Origin: a virus
Lineage: Duplodnaviria; Caudoviricetes
IMG/VR virus record: IMGVR_UViG_3300028048_000086
Span: 1 to 64,000 of that record
Strand: one strand, 5' to 3'
Length of the DNA: 64,000 nucleotides
The notes beneath the pieces were generated by a model, which worked only from the letters and a program-made list of their open reading frames with translations, had not been told where the DNA came from and made no database searches. Position numbers and translations under genes: made by a program. This document shows, piece by piece, positions 30,690-59,841 of this stretch (position 1 is its first letter; every line of letters begins with the position of its first letter).

Positions 30690-33600
30690 TTAATTACTAG
30701 AATCACTTGAATCATCTGTGCTCGCTGATTCATCCGTTGATTCATCTTCTGGTTCTTCCATAGGCATATCTTCGCTATAAGCGTCATTGCCGGATTGCTC
30801 GGCGACATTCTTATTCGAGATACGCGGCATACGAACAACGACTGCTACTTTCTGAGCATCTACTTTCTTGGAGCTGAAAATCTCACTCGCAAGCTGTCCA
30901 TCACTATTTGCCGCGTCCTGCTTAATTTCCTGGGCAAATTCGATAATCGCATCCGCCAGAGGATTAATTGCGTTCTCTACGGCGTGGAGGATAAACGTAA
31001 AACCGGCGGCCGCCTGAGATTCCGTGTCTCCGATGCGGAGAGCGGACTCCAAAGCAACGAAAGAATTCTGAGTCATATCGTAAGATTCCTGAGGATCCGA
31101 GGAATTCGCCGTCGGCATATTGTTCTTAGCTCTGCGAATAATCTCGTAAAGAACGTCTACGGCATCAGGATTTAACAGCGGCATGTCATAAACATGGTCG
31201 CCATTGTCAAGGTCATATTCCATGACCTTAACGTACTTCTGCTCTCCTTCGATATTCAAGATTCTTGACTCTACATACTTGCCATCATTCAGCGCCGGAG
31301 TTTCGTGGATAATCTTAAAGAAGCCTTCTTTGATATATGGGCGGAAACGAGGATCGTCGCCAATCATGCGGACATTTTTCATCTTAGGATCATCCTGAAA
31401 ATTCGATGTGTTCTGCATGGAGAAGTAATTATACGAAGTTTGGACGTCATCGTAGAGAGAATAATCAGCTCTAGGAGTCATGAGCAGACGACGATAATCC
31501 TGCTTTACGGTATTGCCGGAGAGTGCCGACATTCCGTAAGAAGCTTGAAGCGTATTCTTGAAGAGATTGTTACTGGAAGTAGGATTGCCATTAGCATCTA
31601 CCATTCCAGAATCTCTTTGAGATTTCGCGACCGCATCTTTATAAACTTCTGGATCAGAAATCAAGGAGCCAGTGTAAGCGCCGATGGCTGACGACGGATC
31701 ATTCTTGATTCTCTCGTCGTCGTCGATGCCACTGACCTTGTTCATGAGTTTCGTCCATGCGCCCTGCTCTTTATAAGAAGGATCACCATAAATCATGCCC
31801 ATGCTTCCGGCTACGCCCGCCGTCCAGACAATGCCGTATCTCTTAAGAGGATAAATCGTAAGCACTTGGAGATTACGAGTATATTTTTTGAACATATTCA
31901 TGATCGTACTTCCGATAGCTTCTACGGCGATTGTCTCTAAAGTGGCCTCTACTAGATTAACTACAAGACCTGGCCCAAGAACGCCAGCGCCACCGGTACC
32001 TATAGCATTACGAAGAAAACGAGCACCGAAACCAGCAGCAATTTTCCCAACCGCACTTTCGGCTAATCGTTCCCCGGCTTTTTTGCCGGCCCATTTGGCA
32101 CCGGCATCAACGTACTTTATCGGATTCGCTGACTTAACCGCTGAACCTGCCGCGCTCGCCGCTTTTCCTCCCATCTCTACGGCTTTCGTAGCCATCTTGC
32201 TTTTTGCCGTGAGATTCTTCATAGCTTCTAGTCCGCGTTCAGGATAGAGAGCCTGCTTTAACTTAGAAGCCGCGTCAACAACGGGAGAGCTTCCGAAGAG
32301 TCCCATCGCCGAAGCAAATTTCGCGACGGCTAATAAATGGACGGTAGCAAAACCAGCCGTCATATTAAACCAGGAAGCGATGATTTGCTCAAAGCGATCG
32401 TCGACCGCGCAGATTAAATCAGGAGATACCGTAGTCGTGAATCCGTTTTCTACGGACATAGAATGAACAACTTCTTTTGCCGTACATTGGCCCGAGATGC
32501 CTTCATACTCATCGCTGATATACATACGGTCATGTGGCTTTATCGTCGGATCTCCGAGGAGAACCATATCGCCGGCATACATCTCTTTCATGGAATCTTT
32601 GAGAGCGGAAGCTGTCATACGCCAAGCGATAGACTTGTTGTTCATGTTATGACCGCCGGTAAGAGCTCCGTCTTCATCGTTGCCGACGATAGCATCTACT
32701 GTCTCGAAAGACGTAAAGAAGTTTAATCCGGCGGCACCGACGAATGGAACGCCCTTGCCCAACAGCTGCGTATCCACAACCATAGATTTCTGGTCTTCTG
32801 GATAGATATCATAGTCGGCATAAAGCGGGCCAACTGTATGCTGCTCTTTCGTATTCGCTGTCGCACAAACCTGATACAATCCAGTGGCTACGGTCTTCAT
32901 CTTTTGAGAAGTTGCCGTGATGCCATTCGCGATAATATCAGATCCAGAAGTATAAATATGATATTGTTGAAATGGTTTGCGCTTTTCGAGAATTGCCCCG
33001 TTTGAATTTATGTAGGAATAAGCATAATAGAAACGAGGAGCGCCGATGAAGAGCGTAGACCGGAAATCGAACGGAGCTACTGCGCAGATGAAGTCAGGCA
33101 TAACACTCTTACAGATATTCGCGATATCCCAGACAGTCTTGCCGAAAACATCGAACGTAATTGATGGAGCCTTATCGATGCCTAACACGTTCGTGACATT
33201 ATCATCGCCCCAATTTGGACTAGCCCAAGCTTCAAAGATGTTCTGCATAGGTTCAGATGACTTTGAACTTGAACCAGAGCCAGAAATATCAGCCGAGGAT
33301 GCCATTGAGAAATCTTTATTTCCAAAATGATAGATACCATAAGGATTATCTCCGAGAATATCCGGGCGATCAAAACCGAATGGAAGATTCTTGAGAACGG
33401 TCGCGATCGCGCCGCCATTCGTCGTCAAGATATCATTCATAATCTGCTTCGGAGTCTCGCCGTTTGATAGCCAACCGCCACTCGAAGTAAGAGAGTGGGC
33501 TTCTTTCTTCTCTAAAATCGGATTCATGAGCTCGACACCATCGCCTTGGGCCACGATTTCAACGGTATCTTCCGCCGTAACTTCGGCGATAGAACCATTA

Positions 33601-36600
33601 AAGATAATCGGAAGCATCACGGCATTCGAACCATATCCAGCTCTTAAATGAATGCGGGCTCCGGCGCGAAGACGAAGTTTATCTGGCGGTGAAGCATTCT
33701 GGCGTTTCTTTTCCTGTTGCTCAGCATAGCTACTGGAGTCCTTCGCAAAATGATTATGCCACCCAGGGAAAAATACAGAATCAAACGTATCTCCGAGAGA
33801 GGCTTCTGATTTACGTAGGCGATCAATTCCTTCCGTCGCGTATGATTGGAAGTAATTCGTCAACGTAATCGTAGCCGTATCAGCCGGATTTTTACGATCT
33901 TTTACAACCGTAAACTTTAAGATATTCATGGAGTTATAGAAGTTATCGTGAAGTTTATAAGAACCGACATCTCTGCCTTCATCAACGAAAATCAGATAAT
34001 ACGTTGGGAATGCTCGGAGCATACGCCCACGAGCATCATGAACAATCATATCGTGGCAGGAATGAACCATAAACTTCTTCGGATCATCTGCTGCTTTAAT
34101 GTATAACTGTTCCGTTTCATTACGAGCATGCTGCACAGCCGGATCATTTTGCGAAACGCCGATCGTATCTTTGTTGTCGATATGACCAAGGCCAGTCATA
34201 GCCATCGTCATCTTGCGTAAGGCCATTGTCGGCTTGTCACCGGTAGAAATCTGGGAAGACGGAACCGCCGCGCCGCGAGAATATTCTTGAAGACCACGAT
34301 AATCACGATTGTCGATACGGTCAAGTATCATTTGGTTTCCGTCGCTTGAAGCTAGCACACTTGCTGTCCAAATTTTACCGGAATCCATCGTATCCGTATT
34401 CCGAGAGAAGAATTTGATGTGCTCTACTAGCTGAGCTTCTTTCTCTCCGACACGAAGTTTATTCGCTTCTTCTGTATTCGAAACCCCCTGCTGGGCTTTC
34501 GATGCTTTTCTCAAAATATCCGTTTTGATCGTAGGAATCGCGTGGCGATCAATTAGAACTTTGATCCAGTAAAGACAATTGCGTAAATAAGCATGCGTAC
34601 AGAATAGCGGATCACGAATGCATGCTAGTTTGTATGCAACGATCGTATCGACAGGCTGATAGCGATAGTAACGATCGAGAAGATAATAATTTGTGTTAAT
34701 GCGGGTAAGGTCATCATTCTTCTCCTTTTCTGTCCAAACATCACTCGGATTTTCTCCGGTCATTTTCATGAACTCGCTACGGGAATATTGCTTAATTTTG
34801 AAGCAGCCAAATTCCGTAGCATAAAAAGCACCGGCATCTGGAAGGTCTTCGTCCATCGTCGTCTCTGCTCTTGTCGTACCAGGAACATAACCGACGAAGC
34901 CCGGGGATGCCATCCAGTTCGTAGATTTTTTCTTACTGGAATATTCTTTTTCTCCCGTCGCGGCGCAGGCGGCGGAATAAACGATGTCTTTGACGGTTTT
35001 CAAGAAATTCGCGTTAACATCGATATTTATCAGATCCATGATCTGATGCACTTCAGATATATTGAAAAACTGCTCAACGCCGTTATAAATAGCGGTCTTG
35101 ACTAAGTCAAAGCACTTTTTGGTGTCTCCACCGTTCTTTTTCGCTGCCAGATATTGATTGCGGATAGCGTTATTGCTACTCCACATATCTACGACGATTG
35201 GTTCAGTTTTTAGATACGTCTCTATTTCACTAGAGGCTTCTCTCGCGTTTTCCAGTTGATCATGAACCCAAGCGCCTTCCGTAATCTTTTCTTGCGTTGA
35301 TTGCTGGCTATCATCAGTTGAAGAATCATCTGTGGCTTGCTTGGTATCCTGTTGTTGGGTGTTAGATTCGGCACCTTGCTGAACAGCATTCTGAATTGCT
35401 CTTTTTCTCTCATTCGCTTCGTACGCTTTGATTTCTTTCGTGTAATTAGGTTCGAGAAACATCGCCTTTACATCATTGCTAATTTCCCATCCTTCATACT
35501 CTTCAACAGCATTATAATTGCTATCTTTCTTTAGATTCTCGAGCGTCTTCTTAGCGTTGACAGTGTATTTAGCATTTTCACTGTTCTTCGCCATCTTTTC
35601 CTGATTTTTGGCAGCATCATTCATCGCTACGGCTTCATAGCCTTTTTGTTCCTGAGCTGTGAGTTTGTATTTAGCTCCCGTGGAATCCTTATAAGTTTTC
35701 GTACCGTCAATGCCGGCTTCGATAGATTCCATAATCGTATCGCGAAGAATCTGACTAGAAAGGCGTGCTAAATATACGAAGTAAAAATCAGGATCAACGT
35801 AGACACGGTTGTCTTGGAACTTATATCTGAGATAGGAATACCCGAGGGAGTTCATATCCTCCAAAGTTGGAAGTTCCAAATCAGGATACAGTTCTGCGTG
35901 AGCAAGAGTATTTTCAACTTCGAAGAAAGACTTCAATGTCTTCTCTTCAAAGTTACTATCCTTACGATCTCCGTTATTCCTAGCTTGAAGCATGGCCGTA
36001 GCTTCTCTTTGACGAAGCGTACGATCCATGGAACGCATGGAGAACGAAATATTATAAACGCCTGGCTGGCCCGGAATCGTATCTATTTGGACATCTGTAA
36101 TTGATACTTCTGTCGTACCGAAGAATCTCGTAAATTCAGAATCGACTTTGATAGGATAGCATGGAATTACCTGACGATATTGACGCATCATCAATGCTGA
36201 TAGCTTCGGCAAATTGCTGATAATACCGGCTGCTTTTTTACTCGACGTCATAATGCTGACATTGAAAACTGTGTCTTCGCCGCCGAGATATTGCGGAGCA
36301 CATCCTTTTGAATCCTGAAGAGAAATTGGATGACCATTTGCAGATGACATGTGGTTCATGATCTGTGCTGAATAATCCGTTATGTAAAAGACTCCAGCAT
36401 CGATAGGAATAAACGACATATTGTCCAGCTGGTCAATATTCGCTACTTTTCTCCATTGACTATTGCCAGAGTCATTGCCTTTGATTGAGTTGTTGTCATA
36501 TTTGTCTTTTGCATATGACAACAACTTCATATCATCTGTATCAGCTATCGGAGTAAAACTAGTTCCGGATCCATCCGCCGCGATAGAAATGCGCATCGGT

Positions 36601-39182
36601 ATAAAGATACGGCCATCTTTGTAAGTAGCTCCTTCCGTGCCACCAATAAATGCCGTAGCATTTTTCTGTACATCTTTAATAGCGTCTTCCGTAAGCGCAT
36701 GACCATCATCGTCATTGAAAGCTACGCAAGCGCCAATTTCAAAATACTTGTTTTGGCTATCATATCTTTCATATCCGCGCACGTTAGCATCCGGACACTG
36801 TTCTTTAATCGATGCTTTTAACGTAGATAGAGCTTCATCTACTTCATCGTGAACATCGTTGCCATCTGCATCACGGAGATCTCGCCATGAAGACATTCCA
36901 TGGTCTAAAAACGTCGTGGCATTTGTGTTTGCTTGCGGAGAAACTGGAATATAGTGAATGCCTCTACCGTCGAGTTTCTTGATCGCATTCTGAAAATCGT
37001 CACTGTTAATTGCAGCCTCGATTCCCTTGGCATTCTTACCGATAGTATTCATCGCTTTCGCGCCATCTTCGGAGTAATTAATGCCAAGCTGCTGCTCCTG
37101 CATCTTTTCTCTCTTAGCTTTGAGCATCTTATCAAGATATACAGGGTCAGCGACGTAGAACTTCATAGTGCTGTCTTTAAGAGGCATTGGCTGAAGCATT
37201 GTACGGTTTTCGAGAGTCTTTTTGAGATAACCCTTCGAATTAATTTCCAGTCCAGAATTCAGCAAGGCGTTGCCATTAATCAGTGCTCTCTGATAATAGT
37301 AACGCATAACCGGCCAGTTGAATGCCGCCGAGAATCCATTTATTTTCTTTCCTGTTTGAAGCTTGAAGAGAGCACAATCAGGGATATAGACGGCATAATC
37401 AAATTCCGTCATTGTGAGAGTTGCTTCGATTAATTGTGGGCCATTCGACGACACATTCTTGATAGCGATGGAATTCATAACAACGGCTTCAATTCCAAGC
37501 GTATCATTCAAATAATCGTTTTCGATCGGCAGAAATGGCGTGAACTTAAATTCCGAAACGAGAGCGCGAAGGCCATCCATATAGTAGACCATCTTTTTCC
37601 CGTTCGGAGCCTGTGCTTTATATTCCCAACCATTGATACCTTTATCTCCGCAAAAATAAATATGCATGGAAATTTCGCGCTCGATATTGCGGCCGCCCTT
37701 CGCCATCGTGCCACGAGCGCGGAGCATAGAGACACGTTCTTCTGATGTATGCGTCGTAACAGAAATCGACGTAGGAGGAACTAAGAAAGTAACATCACCG
37801 ATTGTTACCGTCCAATTTGTCAGTTCTGCCCAGTCTTTGCCGAAGATAGATTCCTGGATTTTCTTGCGATCATCCAGCTCTGAAGCCATAGAAAAATAAG
37901 CGTCAGCAAAAACCTGCTGGTCAGGATCATATTCTGTTTTGAAAGCTTCATTATTTCCGATATTTGAGTTATCCGGCTGCGCATGCGTTTCCGTATCCGC
38001 GATAAGGGCTTTCGCTAAGTTTACGAACTTGCCATCAACTTTTACGAAGGCTTGCCCGGAAACTCTACCGAGGACATCTTCTTTCGCGAGGCACCAGCCA
38101 TTATTCGCGCCATAAAGATCATTTCCCGCCCAATTCTTTAGTGTGCTGATTGCTTTTTGATCATCGGCAATATACTGGAAATTGTTGATACCACCAATGC
38201 CGGTTTTATTATCAATCGTAACGTAAATCGGACCATGATCTTTGATGAGATTTTTTAGTCTCATCGACGCTTTTTCAGCATCTTCTTTACTGCCGTTAGC
38301 CGGGCATACGAGCCATTTGAATGAGATTTTCTCGTCAGAATCATTCGTCCGTTCAATCTGATACCAGCGTTCTCCAAGATGAACGAACTCTGCTGAATTT
38401 TCTCCGTCTAAGAACTCTTGCGTACAGGTATAAGAACTCGGATAATTCTTGGCATCTGTTGGCGAGAAAGACCGAATTTCTACCTGATCAGCGGGAATGT
38501 TCTTTTCAAAGGCATAGCGATCTGGGTACACGGCGTCAATACCGTATAAAGATAGCTGTATGCAATCAGAATCATCGAGCCCGCCGAAATTCGGATCATT
38601 TCCACTGACAGACTGGCGGAAAGTCTTCGCTGCGCCATCCGTCATCCCATTCGCATCAGAATGGAGTTCGCTGAGCCCGACACGTAGAACGTTACCATTT
38701 AGCCAATCACCTTCATAATCGTGAGATGAAGGTGTAGCGTAAAACATCGTAGACTGAGTCTTTTCATCGTAACCGAACTCTTTGCTTGGTGGATTTTCGG
38801 TATAGAATGCCGCTCTCTTTCCTTTTTCTTCGTCTCCAGGTTTGAAAGCATCGTCCGTCTTGTTTACCATATCATCGAGTTTTCGAAGATAAACATCGTC
38901 GACGGCGCCGAGATAAAAATCTCCCATTTCAGGAGTCTCAAAAGTATTTACCTGCGTAACATTTCCATTCTCGTCAGTAACTGTTTCGGAGAACGGATTA
39001 TAGTCTTGGCCTTCGTATCTCTTACGATATTCTGCGGCCTGCTTCGCTGCAGAAGCCAGATTTGCTTGTGCATTTGGATCCATCTTCTGAGCAACAGGAT
39101 TGCTCAGTCCAGGAGTCGCGGTAGCTACCTGCTGAACTTCTTCCATTGATGGCTTTTCAGTTGTGTTATTCTCGTCAGCCAA
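30690..39182 (-). CDS. Giant baseplate hub-like protein (~2830 aa) with N-terminal SNase-like region
   Basis: Likely TTG start at 39182 after AGGAGG (track start 39212). LYGIDA...DVLGRVSG...VNLAKAL is thermonuclease-like. TIGDVTFLVPPTSISV and DRKNPADTATITLTN...RIHLRAGYG...IFNG...GDPTIKPHD...EVVHSMSVENGFTT are tube/hub (gp27-like) patterns. Lies just upstream of the spike gene. Confidence 0.65.
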   Translation of the reverse strand: MADENNTTEKPSMEEVQQVATATPGLSNPVAQKMDPNAQANLASAAKQAAEYRKRYEGQDYNPFSETVTDENGNVTQVNTFETPEMGDFYLGAVDDVYLRKLDDMVNKTDDAFKPGDEEKGKRAAFYTENPPSKEFGYDEKTQSTMFYATPSSHDYEGDWLNGNVLRVGLSELHSDANGMTDGAAKTFRQSVSGNDPNFGGLDDSDCIQLSLYGIDAVYPDRYAFEKNIPADQVEIRSFSPTDAKNYPSSYTCTQEFLDGENSAEFVHLGERWYQIERTNDSDEKISFKWLVCPANGSKEDAEKASMRLKNLIKDHGPIYVTIDNKTGIGGINNFQYIADDQKAISTLKNWAGNDLYGANNGWCLAKEDVLGRVSGQAFVKVDGKFVNLAKALIADTETHAQPDNSNIGNNEAFKTEYDPDQQVFADAYFSMASELDDRKKIQESIFGKDWAELTNWTVTIGDVTFLVPPTSISVTTHTSEERVSMLRARGTMAKGGRNIEREISMHIYFCGDKGINGWEYKAQAPNGKKMVYYMDGLRALVSEFKFTPFLPIENDYLNDTLGIEAVVMNSIAIKNVSSNGPQLIEATLTMTEFDYAVYIPDCALFKLQTGKKINGFSAAFNWPVMRYYYQRALINGNALLNSGLEINSKGYLKKTLENRTMLQPMPLKDSTMKFYVADPVYLDKMLKAKREKMQEQQLGINYSEDGAKAMNTIGKNAKGIEAAINSDDFQNAIKKLDGRGIHYIPVSPQANTNATTFLDHGMSSWRDLRDADGNDVHDEVDEALSTLKASIKEQCPDANVRGYERYDSQNKYFEIGACVAFNDDDGHALTEDAIKDVQKNATAFIGGTEGATYKDGRIFIPMRISIAADGSGTSFTPIADTDDMKLLSYAKDKYDNNSIKGNDSGNSQWRKVANIDQLDNMSFIPIDAGVFYITDYSAQIMNHMSSANGHPISLQDSKGCAPQYLGGEDTVFNVSIMTSSKKAAGIISNLPKLSALMMRQYRQVIPCYPIKVDSEFTRFFGTTEVSITDVQIDTIPGQPGVYNISFSMRSMDRTLRQREATAMLQARNNGDRKDSNFEEKTLKSFFEVENTLAHAELYPDLELPTLEDMNSLGYSYLRYKFQDNRVYVDPDFYFVYLARLSSQILRDTIMESIEAGIDGTKTYKDSTGAKYKLTAQEQKGYEAVAMNDAAKNQEKMAKNSENAKYTVNAKKTLENLKKDSNYNAVEEYEGWEISNDVKAMFLEPNYTKEIKAYEANERKRAIQNAVQQGAESNTQQQDTKQATDDSSTDDSQQSTQEKITEGAWVHDQLENAREASSEIETYLKTEPIVVDMWSSNNAIRNQYLAAKKNGGDTKKCFDLVKTAIYNGVEQFFNISEVHQIMDLINIDVNANFLKTVKDIVYSAACAATGEKEYSSKKKSTNWMASPGFVGYVPGTTRAETTMDEDLPDAGAFYATEFGCFKIKQYSRSEFMKMTGENPSDVWTEKEKNDDLTRINTNYYLLDRYYRYQPVDTIVAYKLACIRDPLFCTHAYLRNCLYWIKVLIDRHAIPTIKTDILRKASKAQQGVSNTEEANKLRVGEKEAQLVEHIKFFSRNTDTMDSGKIWTASVLASSDGNQMILDRIDNRDYRGLQEYSRGAAVPSSQISTGDKPTMALRKMTMAMTGLGHIDNKDTIGVSQNDPAVQHARNETEQLYIKAADDPKKFMVHSCHDMIVHDARGRMLRAFPTYYLIFVDEGRDVGSYKLHDNFYNSMNILKFTVVKDRKNPADTATITLTNYFQSYATEGIDRLRKSEASLGDTFDSVFFPGWHNHFAKDSSSYAEQQEKKRQNASPPDKLRLRAGARIHLRAGYGSNAVMLPIIFNGSIAEVTAEDTVEIVAQGDGVELMNPILEKKEAHSLTSSGGWLSNGETPKQIMNDILTTNGGAIATVLKNLPFGFDRPDILGDNPYGIYHFGNKDFSMASSADISGSGSSSKSSEPMQNIFEAWASPNWGDDNVTNVLGIDKAPSITFDVFGKTVWDIANICKSVMPDFICAVAPFDFRSTLFIGAPRFYYAYSYINSNGAILEKRKPFQQYHIYTSGSDIIANGITATSQKMKTVATGLYQVCATANTKEQHTVGPLYADYDIYPEDQKSMVVDTQLLGKGVPFVGAAGLNFFTSFETVDAIVGNDEDGALTGGHNMNNKSIAWRMTASALKDSMKEMYAGDMVLLGDPTIKPHDRMYISDEYEGISGQCTAKEVVHSMSVENGFTTTVSPDLICAVDDRFEQIIASWFNMTAGFATVHLLAVAKFASAMGLFGSSPVVDAASKLKQALYPERGLEAMKNLTAKSKMATKAVEMGGKAASAAGSAVKSANPIKYVDAGAKWAGKKAGERLAESAVGKIAAGFGARFLRNAIGTGGAGVLGPGLVVNLVEATLETIAVEAIGSTIMNMFKKYTRNLQVLTIYPLKRYGIVWTAGVAGSMGMIYGDPSYKEQGAWTKLMNKVSGIDDDERIKNDPSSAIGAYTGSLISDPEVYKDAVAKSQRDSGMVDANGNPTSSNNLFKNTLQASYGMSALSGNTVKQDYRRLLMTPRADYSLYDDVQTSYNYFSMQNTSNFQDDPKMKNVRMIGDDPRFRPYIKEGFFKIIHETPALNDGKYVESRILNIEGEQKYVKVMEYDLDNGDHVYDMPLLNPDAVDVLYEIIRRAKNNMPTANSSDPQESYDMTQNSFVALESALRIGDTESQAAAGFTFILHAVENAINPLADAIIEFAQEIKQDAANSDGQLASEIFSSKKVDAQKVAVVVRMPRISNKNVAEQSGNDAYSEDMPMEEPEDESTDESASTDDSSDSSN

Positions 39183-39259
39183 GTTTTCGTTCCTCCTAAA
39201 TACTGTCGTCACTTTATTGCTAACCGTATATTACGGTTTTGACGAGCCGATATGAATTT

Positions 39260-39318: not shown

Positions 39319-42300
39319 TCAGCTCGACATCCCGATGGCATTCGACACCATACGATTAATATGATATTGGCTGGCAGTAGATCCAATCGTACTGCTCATC
39401 GTGATATTTACTGATCCATTCTGCGGCGTCATTCCGGAAGCGGCATTCTGAATAGCTTCTACGGCTTTTTGCTGTCCCTGCGGAGAAGTAGCGTTGACAT
39501 TGATGACGTAACCACTATTCGGGCCTCCACGCATGACATTCAAGTTCGCATCAGAGAGCGATGGAGCCTGCTGCATCTGTGCTACTTGGCTTTCATCAGA
39601 CTGACCACTTTGAGCTTGATCTGCCGGGCCATGATCCGATGTAGAATTCATCGGACCAGAAACATATCCGGAAGTAAGCAATCCGCCGGCGATGCCGATT
39701 GCTCCGGCGAGAATCGGATTTCCGACATGTTCTGTCATTCCGGCAATGCCTTTGATAGCCTTCGCCACTCTATGAGTAGAAGCTCTAACGGCAGCTTCTT
39801 CGATTTCTTCTCTGCGTTTTAAAGCATTGTCTGAATTCTGACGAATGACATCGGCAGCTTCTCTTGCTTTTTCTGTACGAATATCGGCGGCGCTACTACG
39901 ATTTTGAGGAGCTAGTGCATCTTCGTAGATTTTAGAATCAACCCCCATGCTTTTCGCTTGTTGATTGACCATTTCTTCTGTGCTCGTTATGAGCGATTCA
40001 GAAGATCCGCCTTCAATTTTGTACTGGTCATAATCTGGGTTGAGACCATTCTTGGAGATACCGACACGCATTGCCGCACGGAAATTAGCGCTGTTCGGAG
40101 AAGTCATTGTCTCTACAGCGTCATGAACGAGCTGGGCGCCCATCGCGGCTTTCATGCCATTCGTAATTTCTCCACGATTAACGGAAGCAATTTCTTCGGC
40201 GTTCGCGGCGGCATCCTGTCCAAGTTTCCAGAGATAGAAGTCTTTTGCTTTCTCATATATCGGCGTATCCTTATCGAGAACGTTGGACGGTAAACGAGCA
40301 AGTTCTTTTCCGGTACGAGTACTTAAGAGATTATAGTACATCTCGCGAGCTTCATTCGCGACATCACTGACTTCTTCGCCTCTACCGCGTCTATTCATAA
40401 CACCGTAGATACGGCTATTCAATTTCGACAGCTCTTCACTTCGAGTCAAATCACCATGTTTCTCACTCTTACCCGTTAAGGTAGCTTCCTGAATCGCGGC
40501 TACAGTTGTCGTCGCGAGATTTAAGTAACCATGCGTATCTCGATTGCCTTCGAGATTTGCCATGGTGCGCATCCATTCAAAGATCGAAGTATTCAAGCTG
40601 CCAGCTGCTAGTTTCGAAGCATCTGCCTCGATCTTCTGATTAATCAGAGCAGAAGTCTTCGCATAATGCATGGACTCCAGCAAATCTTTCTGCGTGTCTT
40701 CCGTATACTTTCCGCTCGTCCGTACATAGTCGCTCATCGCTCTTAAGTAATCTGTGGATCCTTTTTCAAGACCTTTTTCTTCGGCGATAGGCGCGAAAGC
40801 TTCATTTAGTTTTTCATTTAACTTGGAATATTTCTTTTCTTCTTCAGGAGTGTAGACTCTGTCGAAATCAACGGAATGGCGACCATCATACGTGGCATCC
40901 CGAACAGAGTGCGTATCAAGATCATCCATACGAGGAGAAGCATCGCGGCGATCATCAAACTGGTTGAACGTAGCTGCTGTATGGATCGTAGAACCGATGG
41001 CGTCGCGGAAAGCCTTTCCTCCGTCATCGAGCTCGACAGATACGCCTTCCATTTTCTTGAGAGCTTTGTATCCGGCATAGTCAAGAGAATCCGTGTGGAT
41101 TTTCTTTTCTCCGATATTAATCGTAGCTCCGGAACGAACGACGAGAGCGTCGCCTTTATCGGAGTCAAAGTCACCTTTCTTTTGCATCCAGCCCCTGACA
41201 CCGACAAGAAGCTCATCATCTCCGACTGTATCATTGACGTATAAAGCACTCGCGGCGATAGAAGTATTCTGCTGAGCTGGTTGACGAAGAATATCGGAAA
41301 GAGTACCCGTCGTTTTAACTTCTTCCAGCGTAGCCTTCTTCAACTTCGTAGCCAAATCGGCATTGCCGCCGGTCAGTTCCATGAAGTAGTCGTCGTTGTA
41401 AATAGCCTTCGCAGCATTGTTACCAACGACAGCGTAAGAAAAGTTTAAAGCCTTAGAAGCATCTTTTCTTCCAACATCTGCCATTTTCGACAGGTTGACA
41501 CCTTGCCATTCCAGCTGCGAGAAGTTGCCATCCAGAGAACGCCATTCTCCATTTTCGGTAACGCCGCCAGCGAAATCATGTCCCTGAGCAGTCGCACGAA
41601 TAACGCCATCTTGGAAGTAAGCATTCGACGCTTTCTTGACAACGCCATCTTTGCCTGTCGTCAGCTGCGAGACATGTCCGACAAACTGGTCAATACTTTC
41701 CTGAATTTTTCCGAGAGCTTTTTCACGAGCGCCTTTGACGTCAGCATTTTGCTCGTAGTTATCACTATAATCACGATATTGACGCAAGAGACTAGCAATG
41801 TCACCTGTAAGAATGCCAGGACTCAGTGTGCCATCTTCTCTTTCGAAGATATCTTTCGTAAACGGAAGAGCTAAGTAGCGATTGCTTCTCTTGCCGTAGA
41901 TCTGAGCCTCTTCAGGAAGTTTGTCATCATGAAGATCGATCAGAAGAGGTCTGCCATAGAGCTGATTCGTAAACTCTTCCATACCAGAAGCTCTTGCCTG
42001 AGTATTCAAGTCTTTCAATGAAACGACATTGAATCCGAACTTCTGCATGTCATCGACGGTCAGAGTATTCTTTTTCTGATTAAACTTGCGAGCGACGGAG
42101 AAAGAAAACGCCATATTTTGCGCCAAGACTTTATCAGCCGTGATCTTTGTTGCGCCGGCTTTTTTCATGGTGCCAATGACAGAATCAATCTGTTCTCCTG
42201 TCATGCCTTCGTCAACTAACCTTTGGCGAGCTTTCTGAGACTCTTCTGTCAGCTGTTTATACTGAGGAGCAAATTCTTCTTTGCGTTCTTCCAGCGTCTT

Positions 42301-45300
42301 ATCATAGATACGATCTTCTCCATCCGTATAGAACTGATGAGCTTTAATCGTATCAACCAGAGATTGATCGATATTATCTCCGGCTTTTGTGCCTTTGACA
42401 AATCTCTCGTATAGTTCGTTACCTTTTTCTTCTCCGAGAGAATGAACAAGGCGTTGCTGAATCGTATTTACATAGTCTTCGTTGATTCTATTCGCGAAGA
42501 CGTTTGTCATAATACGCTCGTCAAGTTTCTCAGGCTTCTTGTTCTGACGAGCTGTATCCTTCGTCGTAATACGAAGCATATCTAGATTCTGGAGCTGCCC
42601 GCCACGAGACAATGCCGTATTCGAATATAGATATCTCTGACCGTATTTCTTGGCTTCTTCGTCATTCAGCCTCTGAACTTTTTCGAAAGAGTGAATCTCT
42701 CTTGCGTAGTCGTCTTTTCCTAAGAGCTCGTCTACGGTTTTTCCAGTACTAACTTCCTTTCCTTCCATATCGAATTTGCGATAATATCCGTTATCTAATT
42801 GCTCGATATAGCCGGTGACTTTCTTGCCGCCCTTTGATAGCTCGAAATACTTTTCAGGGCCTTCGCTCTTAAAGTATTTGTGAGCTATCTCATCGTACGC
42901 ATCCCAATCAATAGAACCGTGAGATAACGTAAACGTACCGGTTTTTTCATCAAGTTCAAGATCTGGGCGAACCTTCTTCATTTCACGAAGAATCTCTTGG
43001 TTCGACATGCCACGATCTTTCATAGCATAAAACATGCTTGAAAATGCGGTAGGATCTCCGTGCTTGATCTGTCCGGAGTAGTTGTTCATGACGCCCCAGA
43101 TATGCTGTCCTTCTTGCAGGGCACCGCTGGCCGTCATAACACGTTCGAGCAAGTCTGTCGCTCCATGCCGCTCCGTCATCATGGCATTCGCGAATTCTTC
43201 TATGCTGGAGAATGTTTTTCCAATCGTTTCCCGGATTCTCTTATCGTTCCAGCCACCATCAGTCATCGCATTGAGAGCGATACCGAACTTCGTCTTCGAG
43301 AGATCCTTCGGTGGATTCATCAGTTCCGTAATAAAGTCTGCCGTAACTTCTCTGCCAATTAGGTTCGTTGCCTTAAATTCCGTAAGGACTTTAGCGACTT
43401 TCCGATCTTTCTGCCCGAGACCGTTCATGATAACACGGCCCATCGTCTTCTCGTTATTATCCGAGACTTTGATGTTACCGGACATGTCCATGTCTTCGAG
43501 GAAGTAACGTGCTTTATATGTGTTGTTCGAATTGAAGAGATTCCAGACTCTTTCCTGCCAGCCTTCGCGGCTCGTATCAATCTTATCGAGATTCTCATTG
43601 ATGATTTCGCTGACTCGTTCATCCGACAGGCGCATACGATCCTGGAAGATTCCGAGGCGCAAGAATCCATTTGATTTTGCTAGAACAGGTTTTTCGCCTT
43701 CGTCGTAAGCGCCGAGAACGCTGAACAACTTTTCATCTTTTTTACGGAAGACACCGTTGTTAGAATGGAAATGAACGTTGCCTTCGCTATCAAGTTCGAG
43801 TTCCGGAGTAGCATCGCCGAGATTCGAGCGTTTCATAACAACGTCACGAGCATTGCTTTCAACGGCACGAACTTTATCGACATCTACCTGTTGCTCGTAA
43901 TAGCGATAGGATAGCATCGCATCAGCTGCACGAGAAGTAATTGCGCCAGCGCCTTCATCCGTCATAATTGAGGAAATGCGAGTAAATTCAGCGCTTTCTC
44001 TCGCTGATAGAGATAGAGCTAGAGCATTCGCGCCTTTATCGACGAGAATTTGAAAATCTCTCGTACTCGTAGAAAGACGCCTGCCGATAAACGAGTTTTC
44101 TACTTTATAGCCAATGCTTTTGCCAATTTCTTCGTTACGAGCAGACTCACCGACGGTGCGAATAAGATCTCCGGCCATGCCACCGATTGAATCAAGATAT
44201 TTCAGAGTATCTTCTGAAGCCCTGAAATAAGAAGCTCTCGCTTTCTTGTATTCGATGCCATTCGCACCAACATGGGCATTCTCACCGACATTCTGATTCT
44301 CTTGATAGATACGGTAGAAGCCCTTCGAAGAATGCGTTCCTAGATGACGAGTAAATCCGCGAATCTTGGAATAAACATCGGCATTCGGGCTGCCGTTATT
44401 AATAACTTCCTGTATTGCGTCTTCGAAGAGAGAACCGTGCTCTTGAATAGCAACGACCTGTGCCATCGTAAGATCGCTCAGACGTTTGCCGTCATAAAGC
44501 TCTGTTCCGTCTTTCATGTAAGCTTCATGGGATTTATCCATGAGCTCTTTCAGGATATTATCAGTATCTGAGCCAGTACCTTCGAATTCTTGGAAAGCCT
44601 TGGTATTTGAAAGTTCTCCCAGCTTCTGTACAATATCTCCTGCATAGAAAGATTGCGAAGTCAGGCGATCCTGCTTATTCTTGTCCAAGCTCGTAGAGAA
44701 ATCTCTCCACGTAGCGTTGAACTTGCTGAGAATATAATTGACACCGCCAAGAAGTTCGTTCTCGCCAGCTTTCCTTTCAAGAAAGTCTGTATGGAGAGAG
44801 GCCCCGACATTTCCGGCGGCCTTGCCCCATAATGAATTAACTTGGAGCTTCTTTTCACGGCTTCCTCTGTCGTAGAGGTTAAATAAACCGATAGGGTCTA
44901 CGCGACGAGTATTATTCTTGCCTTGGCGAATAAAGAACGCCCCGTCTTCATAGCGCTCCTTGGTGAAGAATAGCTCTTGAGACTTGCCAGCTTTAAAATC
45001 ATTGATACTGTTGTAGCCCCAGATTTTGCCAGTTTCTTCGTTGTAGCCGATGGCGCCGCCATTTTCATAGATTCCACGAACAAGATCGTGGACGACTTCG
45101 CGAGTATTTGCTCTCTTGATCTGTTGTCCTCTCTGCATGAGTTCAGCGCTCTCTTTCGAGTAGCCCTGAGCCATGAGATTCTTTACGAAGTCCTCGGAAT
45201 CTTCATGAGCGAACCCTGTATTGAATAGAATCTTATCTACGATATTATCGGCGATTTTATTCGTCGCGTTCTCGAATTTCTGCTTCGCAAGTTTCGGATT

Positions 45301-48300
45301 ATCTTTACTATACGAGAATGGGATGATTCCTAGCTTGTTTTTGCCGATACGATCAAGAGTCTCTTCAATCGTTTTCTTCGAGAGTCCTTGGTTTTTCTCC
45401 TTCGAATTTACGACATCATAAGTGCCGATAGGAGACAAGAAGCCTTTCGTCGGGTCTTTCTCACGAGCTTGTTCGAAGCCATGGAGAATCTTGCTCGTGG
45501 CAATATCCGTACTATCATTTGCCAAATCAACGGCATAGTCTTTATCTTCTTCAATGACATGCTTATCAACGAGAAACTTCTGGAAATCGCCGAGAATCTT
45601 GACTTGATTTTCCGGCGTGAAACTCTGAATCTGACGATCGTCGTAGCCCATCTCTTTTAAGAGAGTAGTGGCCATGCCCCATTCGCCACCATGAAGCTTA
45701 AAGGCTTTGATTCTACCTTCCGGAGCTTTGATGCCATTGAATCCGTTAAGATCAACTTCGAAGATATTCTCCATTTCGGAGGCAACACGATATCCTCTGC
45801 GCCACCCAATCGGAGCATTATTCAGTTTTGATAGCTTCGTTACACCTTCATTTGCCTGAAGAACTGCTTGTTCTTGAAGAGCTTGACGAGCATAGCGATA
45901 GTAAATCTTGAAGCTCTTGTCGCGAGTATTGTCTGTGCCGGACTGCTTCTTAGCGAAATCGAGTGCAGCCTGAATCAGACCGAAGTTACGACGGCCATAA
46001 TCTTCTAGCTGTGTCATGTTACTCGCAGTGTTCGAGTACATGTGCATGATGCCGTCGGATTCCCAACCGAAATATTTATAGAGAGTATCCTCAAAAGACT
46101 TCGCCGAAGGTTTATATTTCGGATTATTCGCGATTTCCGTCGCCGTACGTATCGTGCGATCCATCATCTCTTGAGTATATTTGCGACGATATACTTCAAG
46201 ATCAGAACCGGCGGCAGCTACCATATGAGGAGTATCTTCTGGCAGCCCCTGAATCGGACCATAGACTTTCGGGATTTCCTCATCCATATCGGAGATATAA
46301 CGAAGCAACCCGGCGTCTTTCGTGGCGTCGAGTTCTCTCGCTGCTCTAGCGGCCGCATCGTTATCAAACGCCAGCGTGCTTTGAGCTTTTAAGCCCTCAG
46401 CCGTAGGATCGATAATTTCGACTTTTCCCTTGGAATCTGTAGAGTAAAGTCGAAGAGCATTTCTCTCTTCTTTTTTCAAGTCATTAATAACATATTCGCC
46501 ATTCTCGTTGATATGGCCAGCGTATGACATATGACTCAGGCTGAGTCCGATATTATGCGGAGTACCGAATTTCCAAACATCGCTATTGGCGCCAATGGTT
46601 TCAGAATCAGAATATGGAGTTAAATGGATAAAATCTAGAGAACCGAAATCTAATTCAGGATGTGCTTCTATGATGGATTGATATAGTGGATTATCTCTAT
46701 CAATCCTGCCATTGCCCTGAAGAATGTAAAGACCGCGACGACGCTCGCCAGTTTGCTGGAAAAGTTCTTCTTTCGCTCCAGTTCCCGTGATAGAGACAGC
46801 ATCCGATGTACGGATAGTGCCATTCATTGGATCTCCGACGAATGTCAAAATGCCATCTTGGCGATAGCCAGAACGATTTGCGTAAAATACTTCCGTGCCA
46901 TTTGCGCTAAGTCGATCGGCGTCTTTCGGCAACTGATTGATAAGCGAATTCGGGTCATTCGGATTGAATAATCCAGTTCTATAAACCAGCGTCGCTGTTC
47001 CGATGGCGTCTTCTTTCGCGTTATGGGCACCGTTCTGAACTTTCGAGCCATTGATAAGTTCGAAAGCGTGAAGAAGAGCTTCCTGTGTCAGAGGCGTCTT
47101 GCCGGCTTCGCGCATCCATTTCATTTGCTGCGGAAGGAGGTCTTCGTGTCCTTTAAAAAGGTTCCGATAAAATTCAGAGCTATTTCCGACAGCTGCTCTT
47201 TCGACATGGAGATCGTCGAAAACATGATTGAACTTAATAGCGGAGCCGCCGAAGAGCTGATTGACTTCTTCTTTAGCTTTGTCGCTCATATAAGGCGACG
47301 TAGCAAAATAGCTTAAGTTGCGAATATCGAAGACTTCGGTGTTGTGGCCAATTGCTGTTAAGTCATTATCTACGATTGTATGAAGACCGGAAAGAAGTTC
47401 TTTTTCCCATCCACGAACACCGTCAACAGCCGTAGCTTCCTGCTGACGATAGATATCCGTATAAAGTTTGAGACCTTTTTCGACTTCTTCCTTCGAAAAA
47501 CGTATGTCTTCCTGCTCCGCGAAATTATCGAACGTGAAGATGCCTTCACTTGCTCTAGAAGTATTTAATTTCGTCTTCTCATTTCCAGCAAGAGCGAGAC
47601 GGTTCAGCGTAACCTTTTCATCGTTCGTGATTTCCTGACCGGAAAAATAGCGGCGCGAAATATCTTCGATACGCTTCCGCATATCATCGTTGATACCGAT
47701 GATAGAGCCATAAGTATGCTTGATTCCCGTAGAAGCATCGAAAGCGTTATTGGCGATGTCTCCTTGAACATGAGAGAAAGAAAACTCCGTGATGAACTGG
47801 CCTAGTTTTCTTCCGCCCTCATCGTAAGTAGCGCCAAGAGTTTCCAGATCCCATAAGACACTTTCACCGTTATGCTTCAAGATATTAGCGATACCTTGAT
47901 AAGCGGTCGCCGGTGTTTGTGCGACGTTATTCAAGATCCTCTGATAGAAGAGTCTCGGCGTCTGGTTCTTCGGTGATGTTACTGCTTCGATAAATGTATC
48001 TGGCGTGAGCTTCCCGTAAGCATTCTTGACAACTTGAGAAATCAGAGCTTTATCTGAGCTAGTAAGAGCCTGAATAGGTACTCCGATATGGCCGCCTTCA
48101 CCATATTTCGAGACAGTCTGAATTCTACCGGTAAAAATAGGCGCAATACGAGTGGAGAGAGCGTCAGAATCCATCTTGCGCAGATAATCATCAATGAGAG
48201 CGTTCTTTTCTTCCGCGCTCAAACTGTCAATATCATTGACTTCTCTCGTTACTTGCTGGTGTACTCTCCTATTTTTCTCTCTAATCTCTGCTTGTCCACG

Positions 48301-48339
48301 GACGTACGCAGCTACGCTGTCTCCTTCGTATATGCTCAT
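39319..48339 (-). CDS. Giant virion protein: DEDDh exonuclease domain plus putative single-chain two-barrel RNA polymerase
   Basis: Exonuclease motifs WDLETLG (D164/E166), GHNTEVFD (D338), HNAKED (H439/D444). Beta'-like GKDG (2229), RQP (2352) and GDFDSD (D2390). Weaker beta-like DEGAG (1461) and K1624/K1631. C-terminal hydrophobic segment ILAGAIGIAGGLL. Confidence 0.7.
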   Translation of the reverse strand: MSIYEGDSVAAYVRGQAEIREKNRRVHQQVTREVNDIDSLSAEEKNALIDDYLRKMDSDALSTRIAPIFTGRIQTVSKYGEGGHIGVPIQALTSSDKALISQVVKNAYGKLTPDTFIEAVTSPKNQTPRLFYQRILNNVAQTPATAYQGIANILKHNGESVLWDLETLGATYDEGGRKLGQFITEFSFSHVQGDIANNAFDASTGIKHTYGSIIGINDDMRKRIEDISRRYFSGQEITNDEKVTLNRLALAGNEKTKLNTSRASEGIFTFDNFAEQEDIRFSKEEVEKGLKLYTDIYRQQEATAVDGVRGWEKELLSGLHTIVDNDLTAIGHNTEVFDIRNLSYFATSPYMSDKAKEEVNQLFGGSAIKFNHVFDDLHVERAAVGNSSEFYRNLFKGHEDLLPQQMKWMREAGKTPLTQEALLHAFELINGSKVQNGAHNAKEDAIGTATLVYRTGLFNPNDPNSLINQLPKDADRLSANGTEVFYANRSGYRQDGILTFVGDPMNGTIRTSDAVSITGTGAKEELFQQTGERRRGLYILQGNGRIDRDNPLYQSIIEAHPELDFGSLDFIHLTPYSDSETIGANSDVWKFGTPHNIGLSLSHMSYAGHINENGEYVINDLKKEERNALRLYSTDSKGKVEIIDPTAEGLKAQSTLAFDNDAAARAARELDATKDAGLLRYISDMDEEIPKVYGPIQGLPEDTPHMVAAAGSDLEVYRRKYTQEMMDRTIRTATEIANNPKYKPSAKSFEDTLYKYFGWESDGIMHMYSNTASNMTQLEDYGRRNFGLIQAALDFAKKQSGTDNTRDKSFKIYYRYARQALQEQAVLQANEGVTKLSKLNNAPIGWRRGYRVASEMENIFEVDLNGFNGIKAPEGRIKAFKLHGGEWGMATTLLKEMGYDDRQIQSFTPENQVKILGDFQKFLVDKHVIEEDKDYAVDLANDSTDIATSKILHGFEQAREKDPTKGFLSPIGTYDVVNSKEKNQGLSKKTIEETLDRIGKNKLGIIPFSYSKDNPKLAKQKFENATNKIADNIVDKILFNTGFAHEDSEDFVKNLMAQGYSKESAELMQRGQQIKRANTREVVHDLVRGIYENGGAIGYNEETGKIWGYNSINDFKAGKSQELFFTKERYEDGAFFIRQGKNNTRRVDPIGLFNLYDRGSREKKLQVNSLWGKAAGNVGASLHTDFLERKAGENELLGGVNYILSKFNATWRDFSTSLDKNKQDRLTSQSFYAGDIVQKLGELSNTKAFQEFEGTGSDTDNILKELMDKSHEAYMKDGTELYDGKRLSDLTMAQVVAIQEHGSLFEDAIQEVINNGSPNADVYSKIRGFTRHLGTHSSKGFYRIYQENQNVGENAHVGANGIEYKKARASYFRASEDTLKYLDSIGGMAGDLIRTVGESARNEEIGKSIGYKVENSFIGRRLSTSTRDFQILVDKGANALALSLSARESAEFTRISSIMTDEGAGAITSRAADAMLSYRYYEQQVDVDKVRAVESNARDVVMKRSNLGDATPELELDSEGNVHFHSNNGVFRKKDEKLFSVLGAYDEGEKPVLAKSNGFLRLGIFQDRMRLSDERVSEIINENLDKIDTSREGWQERVWNLFNSNNTYKARYFLEDMDMSGNIKVSDNNEKTMGRVIMNGLGQKDRKVAKVLTEFKATNLIGREVTADFITELMNPPKDLSKTKFGIALNAMTDGGWNDKRIRETIGKTFSSIEEFANAMMTERHGATDLLERVMTASGALQEGQHIWGVMNNYSGQIKHGDPTAFSSMFYAMKDRGMSNQEILREMKKVRPDLELDEKTGTFTLSHGSIDWDAYDEIAHKYFKSEGPEKYFELSKGGKKVTGYIEQLDNGYYRKFDMEGKEVSTGKTVDELLGKDDYAREIHSFEKVQRLNDEEAKKYGQRYLYSNTALSRGGQLQNLDMLRITTKDTARQNKKPEKLDERIMTNVFANRINEDYVNTIQQRLVHSLGEEKGNELYERFVKGTKAGDNIDQSLVDTIKAHQFYTDGEDRIYDKTLEERKEEFAPQYKQLTEESQKARQRLVDEGMTGEQIDSVIGTMKKAGATKITADKVLAQNMAFSFSVARKFNQKKNTLTVDDMQKFGFNVVSLKDLNTQARASGMEEFTNQLYGRPLLIDLHDDKLPEEAQIYGKRSNRYLALPFTKDIFEREDGTLSPGILTGDIASLLRQYRDYSDNYEQNADVKGAREKALGKIQESIDQFVGHVSQLTTGKDGVVKKASNAYFQDGVIRATAQGHDFAGGVTENGEWRSLDGNFSQLEWQGVNLSKMADVGRKDASKALNFSYAVVGNNAAKAIYNDDYFMELTGGNADLATKLKKATLEEVKTTGTLSDILRQPAQQNTSIAASALYVNDTVGDDELLVGVRGWMQKKGDFDSDKGDALVVRSGATINIGEKKIHTDSLDYAGYKALKKMEGVSVELDDGGKAFRDAIGSTIHTAATFNQFDDRRDASPRMDDLDTHSVRDATYDGRHSVDFDRVYTPEEEKKYSKLNEKLNEAFAPIAEEKGLEKGSTDYLRAMSDYVRTSGKYTEDTQKDLLESMHYAKTSALINQKIEADASKLAAGSLNTSIFEWMRTMANLEGNRDTHGYLNLATTTVAAIQEATLTGKSEKHGDLTRSEELSKLNSRIYGVMNRRGRGEEVSDVANEAREMYYNLLSTRTGKELARLPSNVLDKDTPIYEKAKDFYLWKLGQDAAANAEEIASVNRGEITNGMKAAMGAQLVHDAVETMTSPNSANFRAAMRVGISKNGLNPDYDQYKIEGGSSESLITSTEEMVNQQAKSMGVDSKIYEDALAPQNRSSAADIRTEKAREAADVIRQNSDNALKRREEIEEAAVRASTHRVAKAIKGIAGMTEHVGNPILAGAIGIAGGLLTSGYVSGPMNSTSDHGPADQAQSGQSDESQVAQMQQAPSLSDANLNVMRGGPNSGYVINVNATSPQGQQKAVEAIQNAASGMTPQNGSVNITMSSTIGSTASQYHINRMVSNAIGMSS

Positions 48340-55879: not shown

Positions 55880-55888
55880 AAGACATCA

Positions 55889-56251
55889 TCAGAGTTCCTT
55901 TGTTCTCTTAAGAGCACCGAAGCCAGAATGCGACATAATCTCTTCCGAGAGATTGTCGGCAAGGCCGGCAGCTGCTTCAAGTTCATCATCGATGTTTTCC
56001 GGATACAGAACTGCCGCACGGCAAATTTCCGTCTGACGATCCATGAGACGCTTTGCCCTCTTCGCGTCATCCTGCTCGTCTTCACGAGGAATTTCGGTAT
56101 CAATCATAATCTTCGAATATTCACTACGACGAATCGGACGATAGATAATTACGGTATCGCCATAACCCGTCTGATAGACATGTTTGAATTCATCCTTCCA
56201 GGAAGCGATGGTCTCTTCCGTAAGAAGCGTGCTCTCCAGTTTCTTGTTCAT
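55889..56251 (-). CDS. Tail assembly chaperone
   Basis: 120 aa; IASWKDEFKHVY...IYRP motif; position; GAGGAG RBS. Confidence 0.65.
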   Translation of the reverse strand: MNKKLESTLLTEETIASWKDEFKHVYQTGYGDTVIIYRPIRRSEYSKIMIDTEIPREDEQDDAKRAKRLMDRQTEICRAAVLYPENIDDELEAAAGLADNLSEEIMSHSGFGALKRTKEL

Positions 56252-56306
56252 GTAAATATATCCTCCTCTAGGAATGAGTAATTAGTTGTTTTTTACACTA
56301 TAAACA

Positions 56307-59747: not shown

Positions 59748-59774
59748 TGGAGAATCCCTCCGTTTTATACGCAC

Positions 59775-59814: not shown

Positions 59815-59841
59815 ATTACCGATTGTAGATATAAATATATC

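Follow-up and report, generated by a model that had tools for sequence, protein, structure and literature searches.

A giant protein in a phage tail locus with a predicted single-chain two-barrel RNA polymerase and a probable DEDDh exonuclease

Injected RNA polymerases let a phage start its programme without the host enzyme, and the characterised ones that carry two barrels in a single chain come from crAss-like podoviruses and from one group of Thermus siphoviruses. Thermus phage P23-45 encodes gp96, a virion RNA polymerase fused to the tape measure (PDB 8H2M/8H2N; Chaban et al. 2024, PMC10770324), and phi14:2, a crAss-like phage, encodes the virion RNA polymerase gp66 (PDB 6VR4; Drobysheva et al., bioRxiv 10.1101/2020.03.07.982082). 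Here we analyse a gene for a protein of 3006 amino acids (aa) in the virus record IMGVR_UViG_3300028048_000086 (Duplodnaviria; Caudoviricetes), the first 64 kb of which (positions 1 to 64,000) are referred to as the window. Given a CheckV completeness of 46% for its 117,973 bp, the record represents part of a jumbo phage. A preliminary description of the window had proposed that this tail-locus gene encodes a single-chain two-barrel RNA polymerase, and both the predicted fold and residue conservation support that proposal. We consider it likely that the protein is a giant virion enzyme, comprising an exonuclease and a single-chain two-barrel RNA polymerase, that is expelled through the tail to start transcription. 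Of this reading, the analysis shows the predicted fold, the residue conservation, the synteny and a relationship to proteins that are annotated as structural in cultured Bacillus phages.

Motifs, conservation and predicted fold of the polymerase region

The open reading frame (ORF) at 39319-48339 on the minus strand comprises 3006 codons without a stop. It contains LTTGKDGVVKK at aa 2226-2236 and LRQPAQQNTSIAA at aa 2351-2363 (starting with LRQP, 2351-2354), followed by DFDSD at aa 2390-2394. Further upstream lie DEGAGAITSRAA (aa 1461-1472) and IKVSDNNEK (aa 1623-1631, containing K1624 and K1631). The frame and every motif quoted in the preliminary description were indeed found where it had located them, with an exact match for the aspartates (nt 41172-41158) and for their distance of 38 residues from R2352 to D2390. 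With 7.2% Asp in the protein, ~1.1 DxDxD motifs are expected by chance, and DFDSD is the sole one present; thus, the motif by itself proves nothing, and its signal rises above chance because it is conserved across relatives.

An exhaustive phmmer search of 1.84 billion representative sequences returned 36 relatives, nearly all 2600-3300 aa long, encoded on contigs that reach 224-260 kb and bearing no name other than 'hypothetical protein'. In an alignment of 34 full-length sequences, which share 19-86% identity with the query at a mean column identity of 22%, only 14 of 3006 columns were invariant, namely H439, D444, R668, K1624, E1630, K1631, G1642, E1723, H1760, P2354, D2390, D2392, D2394 and L2621, while D164, E166, N333, D338, E1462, K1555, K2230, R2352, E2618 and K2624 were conserved in at least 90%. 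This alignment served as an independent test of the ten residues that had been singled out from motif likeness: six fall in invariant columns (hypergeometric p 6e-13), and nine show conservation of 90% or more. The expected retention of the aspartates and of the R-x-P motif in homologues was borne out, with D2390/D2392/D2394 and P2354 invariant and R2352 at least 90% conserved, and the proposed DxDSD variant of the metal-binding loop exists as DFDSD with all three aspartates unchanged in the 34 sequences. The fourth loop position is Ser in the query and Gly in one family member (P0035) and in the Bacillus phage homologues described below.

An AlphaFold model of aa 1445-2644, built from a 37-row alignment, reached a mean pLDDT of 80.3 and a pTM of 0.77. 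Foldseek returned 184 matches in the PDB at E<=1e-3 (best E 3.5e-5, to a β′ chain), and the top 50 of these 184 were all largest subunits of multisubunit RNA polymerases. Upon re-alignment, QDE-1 came first (Z 9.4, 287 residues, model 17-1200), followed by P23-45-type non-virion polymerases (Z 8.9) and then by β′ chains over model 645-1200. Likewise, in a Foldseek-independent scan of 48,161 representative chains, the 14 best-scoring structures were without exception two-barrel RNA polymerases. They included QDE-1 (Z 9.3, 284 residues, model 16-1200 vs chain 707-1140), P74 gp62 (Z 8.9, model 15-1199 vs chain 109-435), Mtb β′ (Z 8.4) and the vaccinia, Pol I, Pol II, archaeal A′, AR9 and phiKZ polymerases, with maize RDR2 (Z 6.8) and P23-45 gp96 (Z 6.3, 247 residues, model 14-1200) lower in the ranking.

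The identity of the β′-type barrel is well supported. A high-confidence β-barrel was predicted at aa 2246-2462, the neighbourhood (aa 2230-2400) in which a double-psi fold had been anticipated, and it matches β′/Rpb1 (Z 8.0-8.9 for the β′-type region), QDE-1 and stand-alone double-psi barrel proteins, two of which hit the Asp-loop region in the scan (110 residues, Z 5.9 for one of them against model 802-1018). The β′ chains align from model ~645 (aa ~2089) onward, model 628-788 finds a counterpart in an archaeal clamp domain, and long helices together with the conserved block at aa 2614-2628 suggest a bridge helix and a trigger loop. In the alignments with QDE-1 and P74 gp62, the modules follow each other within the single chain as β-type barrel, connector and β′-type barrel. 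Taken together, a two-barrel polymerase fold is very likely, and, as far as the model and the retained residues can tell, the protein has a good probability of being an active RNA polymerase.

The upstream barrel was additionally modelled on its own (aa 1400-1830; pLDDT 86.9). No Foldseek match fell below E 1e-3, the best being chain C of the AR9 non-virion RNA polymerase (E 0.013), and ~40 of the top 50 matches were second-largest subunits of RNA polymerases. After re-alignment, all 50 rows were second-largest subunits, covering Rpb2 730-1043 (the hybrid-binding/barrel region) with Z 5.1 over ~210 residues; in a search against all representatives, other folds scored beside the polymerase subunits (best Z 5.0). 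Aligning family sub-profiles to E. coli rpoC with hhalign gave nothing significant, and the likewise non-significant alignment to rpoB (E 0.023) places the lysine motif GDKMAGRHGNKG on aa 1531-1560, so that K1555 rivals K1624/K1631 as a catalytic lysine. The earlier assignment of the β-type catalytic lysines to K1624/K1631 hence holds insofar as both residues are invariant, but K1555 competes with them and the fold scores of this barrel are weak.

As a side observation, the best matches to aa 1445-2644 in BFVD were giant proteins that are unnamed or called 'minor tail protein' (E 5e-9 to 3e-6), followed by RNA polymerase subunits of giant viruses. The giant-protein pieces include an uncultured siphovirus 'minor tail protein' (E 2e-7), Acinetobacter phage ME3 (E 3e-6) and Microcystis phage MaMV-DC (E 1e-3). 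Two-barrel polymerases linked to tails may be more widely spread.

Homologues in cultured phages and the exonuclease domain

Homologues were identified in the cultured Bacillus phages KLEB27-3 (gp034), Edson (0920) and WH1 (gp095), and the only routes that led to them were the adjacent hub gene and alignment of profiles. Over the β′-type barrel, hhalign of the family profile against KLEB27-3 gp034 and Edson 0920 yielded E 1.2e-7 (probability 94%), with RQPAQQ falling on NRYPTIN and KKGDFDSD on KADYDGD or KADHDGD; WH1 gp095, added to the family alignment later, shows the same motifs. NRYPTIN...ADYDGD is near the cellular consensus NR(A/Q)PTLH...NADFDGD. The slot proteins of these three cultured jumbo phages resemble unannotated polymerases with an N-terminal DEDDh domain. 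Within the literature searched, which covered few subscription journals, we found nothing that describes the 3006-aa family or reports a polymerase for its Bacillus phage homologues, and neither KLEB27-3 nor WH1 was the subject of a paper there. Among the supplementary data of Chaban et al., including their gene list of viral two-barrel RNA polymerases, there are no entries for 0305phi8-36, WH1 or ME3.

The protein's N-terminal part (aa 127-459) is a probable DEDDh exonuclease, judging from its sequence. The full DEDDh motif set occurs in order, each residue being invariant or at least 90% conserved. By hhalign, this segment aligns with the Bacillus phage homologues (E 1e-10, probability 97%) and with CDS0027 of Moorella phage MTATph1 (E 3.6e-5), and its neighbours in ESM-feature space are viral RNase_T clusters (score 0.90-0.92). 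The PDB profile match to an exonuclease reached only E 0.14, and Pfam gave no match among 16 members. The slot protein of Bacillus phage 0305phi8-36, gp146, carries the exonuclease motif YLDIETTGL, and Moorella CDS0027 carries LDLETT, NVVGFDIP and GAHEALTDV; both have exonuclease motifs and no DxDxD, and the exonuclease appears to be the more ancient or more general component of slot proteins.

All family members, and the Bacillus phage homologues with them, combine exonuclease and polymerase in one chain, and we know of no two-barrel RNA polymerase bearing a DnaQ-type exonuclease. The two could form one machine, in which the exonuclease proofreads RNA or even DNA, or opens or trims the end of the entering genome and thereby lets the injected polymerase begin; we regard such a joint function, delivered through a contractile tail, as unlikely. 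Because the exonuclease is present in slot proteins without the polymerase motif, the two activities need not be coupled. The same observation speaks against a two-barrel module that makes DNA or primers with the DEDDh domain as its proofreader, in the manner of archaeal PolD and its exonuclease subunit. PolD does show that two-barrel DNA polymerases exist, fold alone does not tell sugar specificity, and the universal fusion would suit this idea; yet the best structural matches are RNA polymerases, with PolD absent among the matches listed, which leaves DNA or primer synthesis very improbable.

Position in the tail locus and delivery with the virion

In 0305phi8-36, a tail-tube paralogue is followed by gp142, the chaperonins gp143/144, gp145, gp146, the hub gp147 and the gpV-like gp148. 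The window shows the same order with genes of similar size (586, 219, 120, 274, 2190, 3006, 2840 and 123 aa), in which the 123-aa gene is matched to gp148 by position alone. As homologues of gp145 and gp147 flank it (Table 1), the 3006-aa gene sits in the gp146 slot. Hardies et al. (2007) had used tail length to designate gp146 the tape measure. The preliminary description had placed our gene between the tape measure and the hub; this needs correction, as its upstream neighbour is the gp145 homologue and the gene itself occupies the presumed tape-measure slot. The same gene order is found on a 224-kb contig of a ~30%-identical relative, and comparing the three giant neighbouring proteins revealed no paralogy among them.

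The best-conserved part of the protein is its C-terminal module, which aligns with the C-termini of gp146, KLEB27-3 gp034 and Edson 0920 (hhalign E 7.4e-5, probability 62%). Along similar lines, orf146 and its presumptive BtI1/BwK1 counterpart, which belong to the same lineage, align over the last ~60 residues only (Hardies et al. 2007). The hydrophobic C-terminal segment that had been proposed to contact the membrane was located just ahead of this module, at aa 2875-2894. Among tape-measure features, the protein thus has the slot position and the C-terminal match (at a probability of 62%); its modelled part is globular, with no extended helix.

These data bear on the possibility that the protein is mainly a structural component of the tape measure or tail lumen whose polymerase-like region is an inactive relic. 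This would agree with the assignment of the slot by Hardies et al., with the 0305phi8-36 and Moorella phages managing with slot proteins that lack DxDxD, and with the inactive conformation in which the non-Gly loop of crAss gp66 was seen. However, no residues are retained more strictly than the Asp triad, R-x-P and the lysines, down to ~20% identity, the Bacillus phage homologues keep their near-canonical NRYPTIN...ADYDGD, and catalytic residues would not stay invariant in relics. We therefore consider a relic quite improbable.

Judging from gene position and homologue annotations, it is rather likely that the protein is delivered through the tail. An active two-barrel RNA polymerase might instead be a late product of the tail operon that works in the cell, or only in assembly, without being virion-delivered. 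The second polymerase candidate of the genome (see below) leaves the polymerase roles loose enough for this, and the size and globular domains of the protein fit a tail tube poorly. On the other hand, the gene belongs to a conserved block that keeps its order in distant relatives, and gp145 and gp146 of 0305phi8-36 are annotated as virion proteins identified by mass spectrometry. WH1 gp095 and KLEB27-3 gp034 are labelled structural, and the C-terminal module is common to proteins of the tape-measure slot. This makes a non-delivered enzyme unlikely.

Several observations nonetheless weigh against a delivered two-barrel polymerase. Pfam and PHROGs yielded nothing usable for the 3006-aa protein (the sole row, PAP_NTPase at E 0.018, is under its cut-off). 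Across 16 family members (the query and 15 relatives), no polymerase or exonuclease family of Pfam was matched at E<=0.01, and neither the protein nor a 34-sequence profile found a polymerase among PDB sequences. The Z scores of the fold matches are moderate (~9), the matches of the modelled β-type barrel are uniform but low-scoring (Z ~5, Foldseek E 0.013), leaving this barrel weakly supported, and the inter-barrel connector of ~760 aa far exceeds that of QDE-1 or gp66. Moreover, gp146 and Moorella CDS0027 occupy the same slot without any DxDxD; hence, the slot alone implies no polymerase, and its protein comes with or without one. Finally, a 3006-aa protein with large globular domains must unfold or extend inside the tail tube.

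Further sequence searches were equally silent. A tblastn search with aa 1001-3006 in 50,697 phage records gave no match at E<=1e-5, scanning genome and viral contig collections with family patterns produced no confirmed relatives, and the Pfam profile PF05183 (YonO/RdRP) matched neither the query nor the 15 relatives. No gp66-type (crAss-like) homology was detected in PHROGs or by tblastn in the 50,697 phage records. The ESM Atlas returned no usable match for aa 460-1400. Proteins of this kind are therefore invisible to Pfam, PHROGs and sequence searches and were revealed only by fold and catalytic-residue conservation.

For a virion-delivered polymerase, we propose the following scenario, in which catalysis, packaging, ejection and the order of events are what we infer. 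The phage would be a contractile-tailed jumbo phage of the Bacillus phage 0305phi8-36 lineage. Residues ~1445-2650 would form the polymerase, with a β/Rpb2-like barrel, a long connector and a β′-like barrel, in which the D2390/D2392/D2394 loop would bind the catalytic Mg ions and bridge-helix-like helices would follow downstream. The last ~130 residues would comprise the hydrophobic segment and the module common to tape-measure-slot proteins. The protein may be built into the tail lumen and anchored at the hub by its C-terminal module; sheath contraction would then expel it ahead of the DNA, with the hydrophobic segment engaging the membrane. Once inside, the polymerase could transcribe the first phage genes without the host polymerase, as its closest parallels, P23-45 gp96 and crAss gp66, do, and the later genes may be left to the genome's other polymerase candidate, which is split and YonO-like.

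If true, this would extend the tape-measure-linked polymerase to contractile-tailed jumbo phages, including the cultured WH1, KLEB27-3 and Edson, explain how transcription starts in the 0305phi8-36-type lineage and give the tree of two-barrel polymerases a further, deeply divergent branch. It also raises the questions of how an enzyme of ~330 kDa passes through the tail tube and what task the fused DnaQ-like exonuclease has at infection.

Table 1 Features of the 3006-aa protein, its neighbours and its homologues. Unprefixed positions are nucleotides of the window; those prefixed L005 to L009 lie in the records of the phages named.
Feature	Residues or length	Position	Strand	Basis and remarks
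Whole gene	3006 aa	39319..48339	-	Full-length relatives ~2600-3300 aa
Probable DEDDh (DnaQ/RNase T-like) 3′-5′ exonuclease	aa 127-459	46963..47961	-	ExoI D164/E166, ExoII N333..D338, ExoIII H439..D444
Conserved region	aa 460-1399	44143..46962	-	R668 invariant; alignment
Predicted β/Rpb2-like module, first barrel (DPBB-B type)	aa 1445-1824	42868..44007	-	E1462, D1473, K1555, K1624, E1630, K1631, E1723, H1760 conserved
Candidate catalytic basic residues of first barrel	K1624...E1630-K1631	43447..43470	-	Invariant; on predicted β-hairpin (strands model 178-183, 186-193)
Connector between barrels, clamp-like position	aa 1825-2225	41665..42867	-	aa 1825-1915 low-confidence
Predicted β′-type barrel (DPBB-A)	aa 2226-2462	40954..41664	-	T-x-K (K2230), R2352-x-P2354, metal loop; pLDDT mostly 82-95
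Predicted Mg-binding triad	D2390-F-D2392-S-D2394	41158..41172	-	Ser replaces usual Gly at position 4; aspartates invariant
Third most conserved block, AAIQEATLTGKSEKH	aa 2614-2628	40456..40500	-	Ends long helices; β′ alignments reach bridge-helix/trigger-loop region here
Gly-rich hydrophobic segment	aa 2875-2894	39658..39717	-	Conserved; alignment
C-terminal module	aa 2906-3006	39322..39624	-	Common to slot proteins of 0305phi8-36, KLEB27-3, Edson
Upstream gene	2190 aa	48460..55032	-	Homologue of 0305phi8-36 gp145; blastp 5e-43
Downstream gene	2840 aa	30690..39212	-	Homologue of 0305phi8-36 gp147 baseplate hub, cell-wall-degrading domains; blastp 5e-80, also tblastn; phrog_20474 E 1.5e-188
KLEB27-3 gp034	2434 aa	L007:8469-15773		'Structural protein'; DxDGD at 0.79 of length
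Edson 0920	2515 aa	L008:8270-15817		DxDGD at 0.79 of length
WH1 gp095	2515 aa	L009:7267-14814		'Virion structural protein'; DxDGD at 0.79 of length
0305phi8-36 gp146		L005:9579-17192		Slot protein with exonuclease motif, no DxDxD
Moorella phage MTATph1 CDS0027		L006:12021-15950		Slot protein with exonuclease motifs, no DxDxD

Beyond the window, at 89452-93606 (plus strand) of the genome, two adjacent ORFs of 719 and 658 aa contain KYPKQH...LAGMDFDGD followed by SEAVIDAAKKG, and on these motifs they are a candidate for a split YonO/RdRP-like non-virion polymerase. This candidate, which is defined by its motifs only, found no match in PHROGs, in the PDB by sequence or by profile, by tblastn in phages or, for the first ORF, in Pfam. 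Aligning the tail protein with it by hhalign (as a single sequence or a 5-sequence profile) was non-significant (E 0.14-0.6), and SEAVIDAAKKG was the best, likewise non-significant, hhalign match of the block at aa 2614-2628. At 96568-103018, also beyond the window, CCCCTYATAWAACT occurs eight times, always on the plus strand, and after most copies comes a stretch with GAGGA that lies upstream of ORFs. These copies look like phage-specific promoters and are candidates for promoters used by a phage polymerase. An intein that bears a LAGLIDADG domain (Pfam Intein_splicing 5e-19, LAGLIDADG_3 8.5e-17) splits the large terminase gene (79008-82046, minus strand, beyond the window).

Around the polymerase-like gene, the hub homologue (30690-39212) is half as long again as 0305phi8-36 gp147, has three hydrophobic segments within aa 2287-2434 and shows a long match to a PHROG labelled endolysin. 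Two relatives (~35% identity) have ParA/ParB-like genes inserted ahead of the polymerase-like gene, separating it from the first giant gene, as would suit a plasmid-like lifestyle of some group members. The window ORFs 56307-56966, 58716-59774 and 59842-60369 (all minus strand) match the same PHROG, labelled 'major head protein', a label also borne by the small genes that directly follow the tail sheath of Moorella phage MTATph1. Between the sheath and tube genes lies an endonuclease-like ORF (60388-61269, minus strand). This region (55055-61269) suggests tail-tube paralogues and, within the tube gene, an intron or a homing element.

Comparison with known polymerases and slot proteins

The 3006-aa protein shares its slot, the hydrophobic segment and the C-terminal module with 0305phi8-36 gp146, KLEB27-3 gp034, Edson 0920 and WH1 gp095, all of them annotated in their records as structural or hypothetical only (gp146 as 'hypothetical tape measure protein') and not as polymerases. 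An N4-type (T7-like single-subunit) virion polymerase was considered and, for aa 1445-2644, dropped: no such chain occurred among the fold matches of this stretch, and Pfam gave no match. The best structural match is QDE-1 of Neurospora, a member of the PF05183 group of RNA interference RNA-dependent RNA polymerases and YonO-like proteins, with which ~285 residues align over both barrels in the same order. Unlike QDE-1 and YonO, the protein is three times larger, stands in a tail module and has no PF05183 match.

Similar to the present protein, crAss gp66 (2180 aa) is a giant single-chain two-barrel polymerase encoded beside other large virion proteins, its fold was assigned for a minority of the chain, and its metal loop has a non-Gly fourth residue (DFDID in gp66, DFDSD here); gp66 is virion-delivered. 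By contrast, gp66 belongs to a podovirus-like phage, lies outside a tape-measure slot and lacks an exonuclease, where the present protein occupies such a slot and has a probable exonuclease. Pieces of crAss proteins gave marginal fold matches (E 0.01-0.05) and no sequence match.

P23-45 gp96, to which no sequence homology was detected, differs in belonging to a non-contractile tail, the tail here being contractile, and in the placement of its polymerase, which is N-terminal (DFDGD at 779 of 5002) rather than in the C-terminal half (DFDSD at 0.79 of the length). The protein described here further has a probable exonuclease domain and a long connector, whereas gp96 is without a clamp. P23-45 also possesses a second, non-virion two-barrel polymerase, for which the present genome offers a candidate. 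As with gp96, there is no sequence similarity to cellular RNA polymerases beyond the DxDxD loop, and, as in gp96, the predicted single-chain two-barrel polymerase is part of a giant protein in the tape-measure position.

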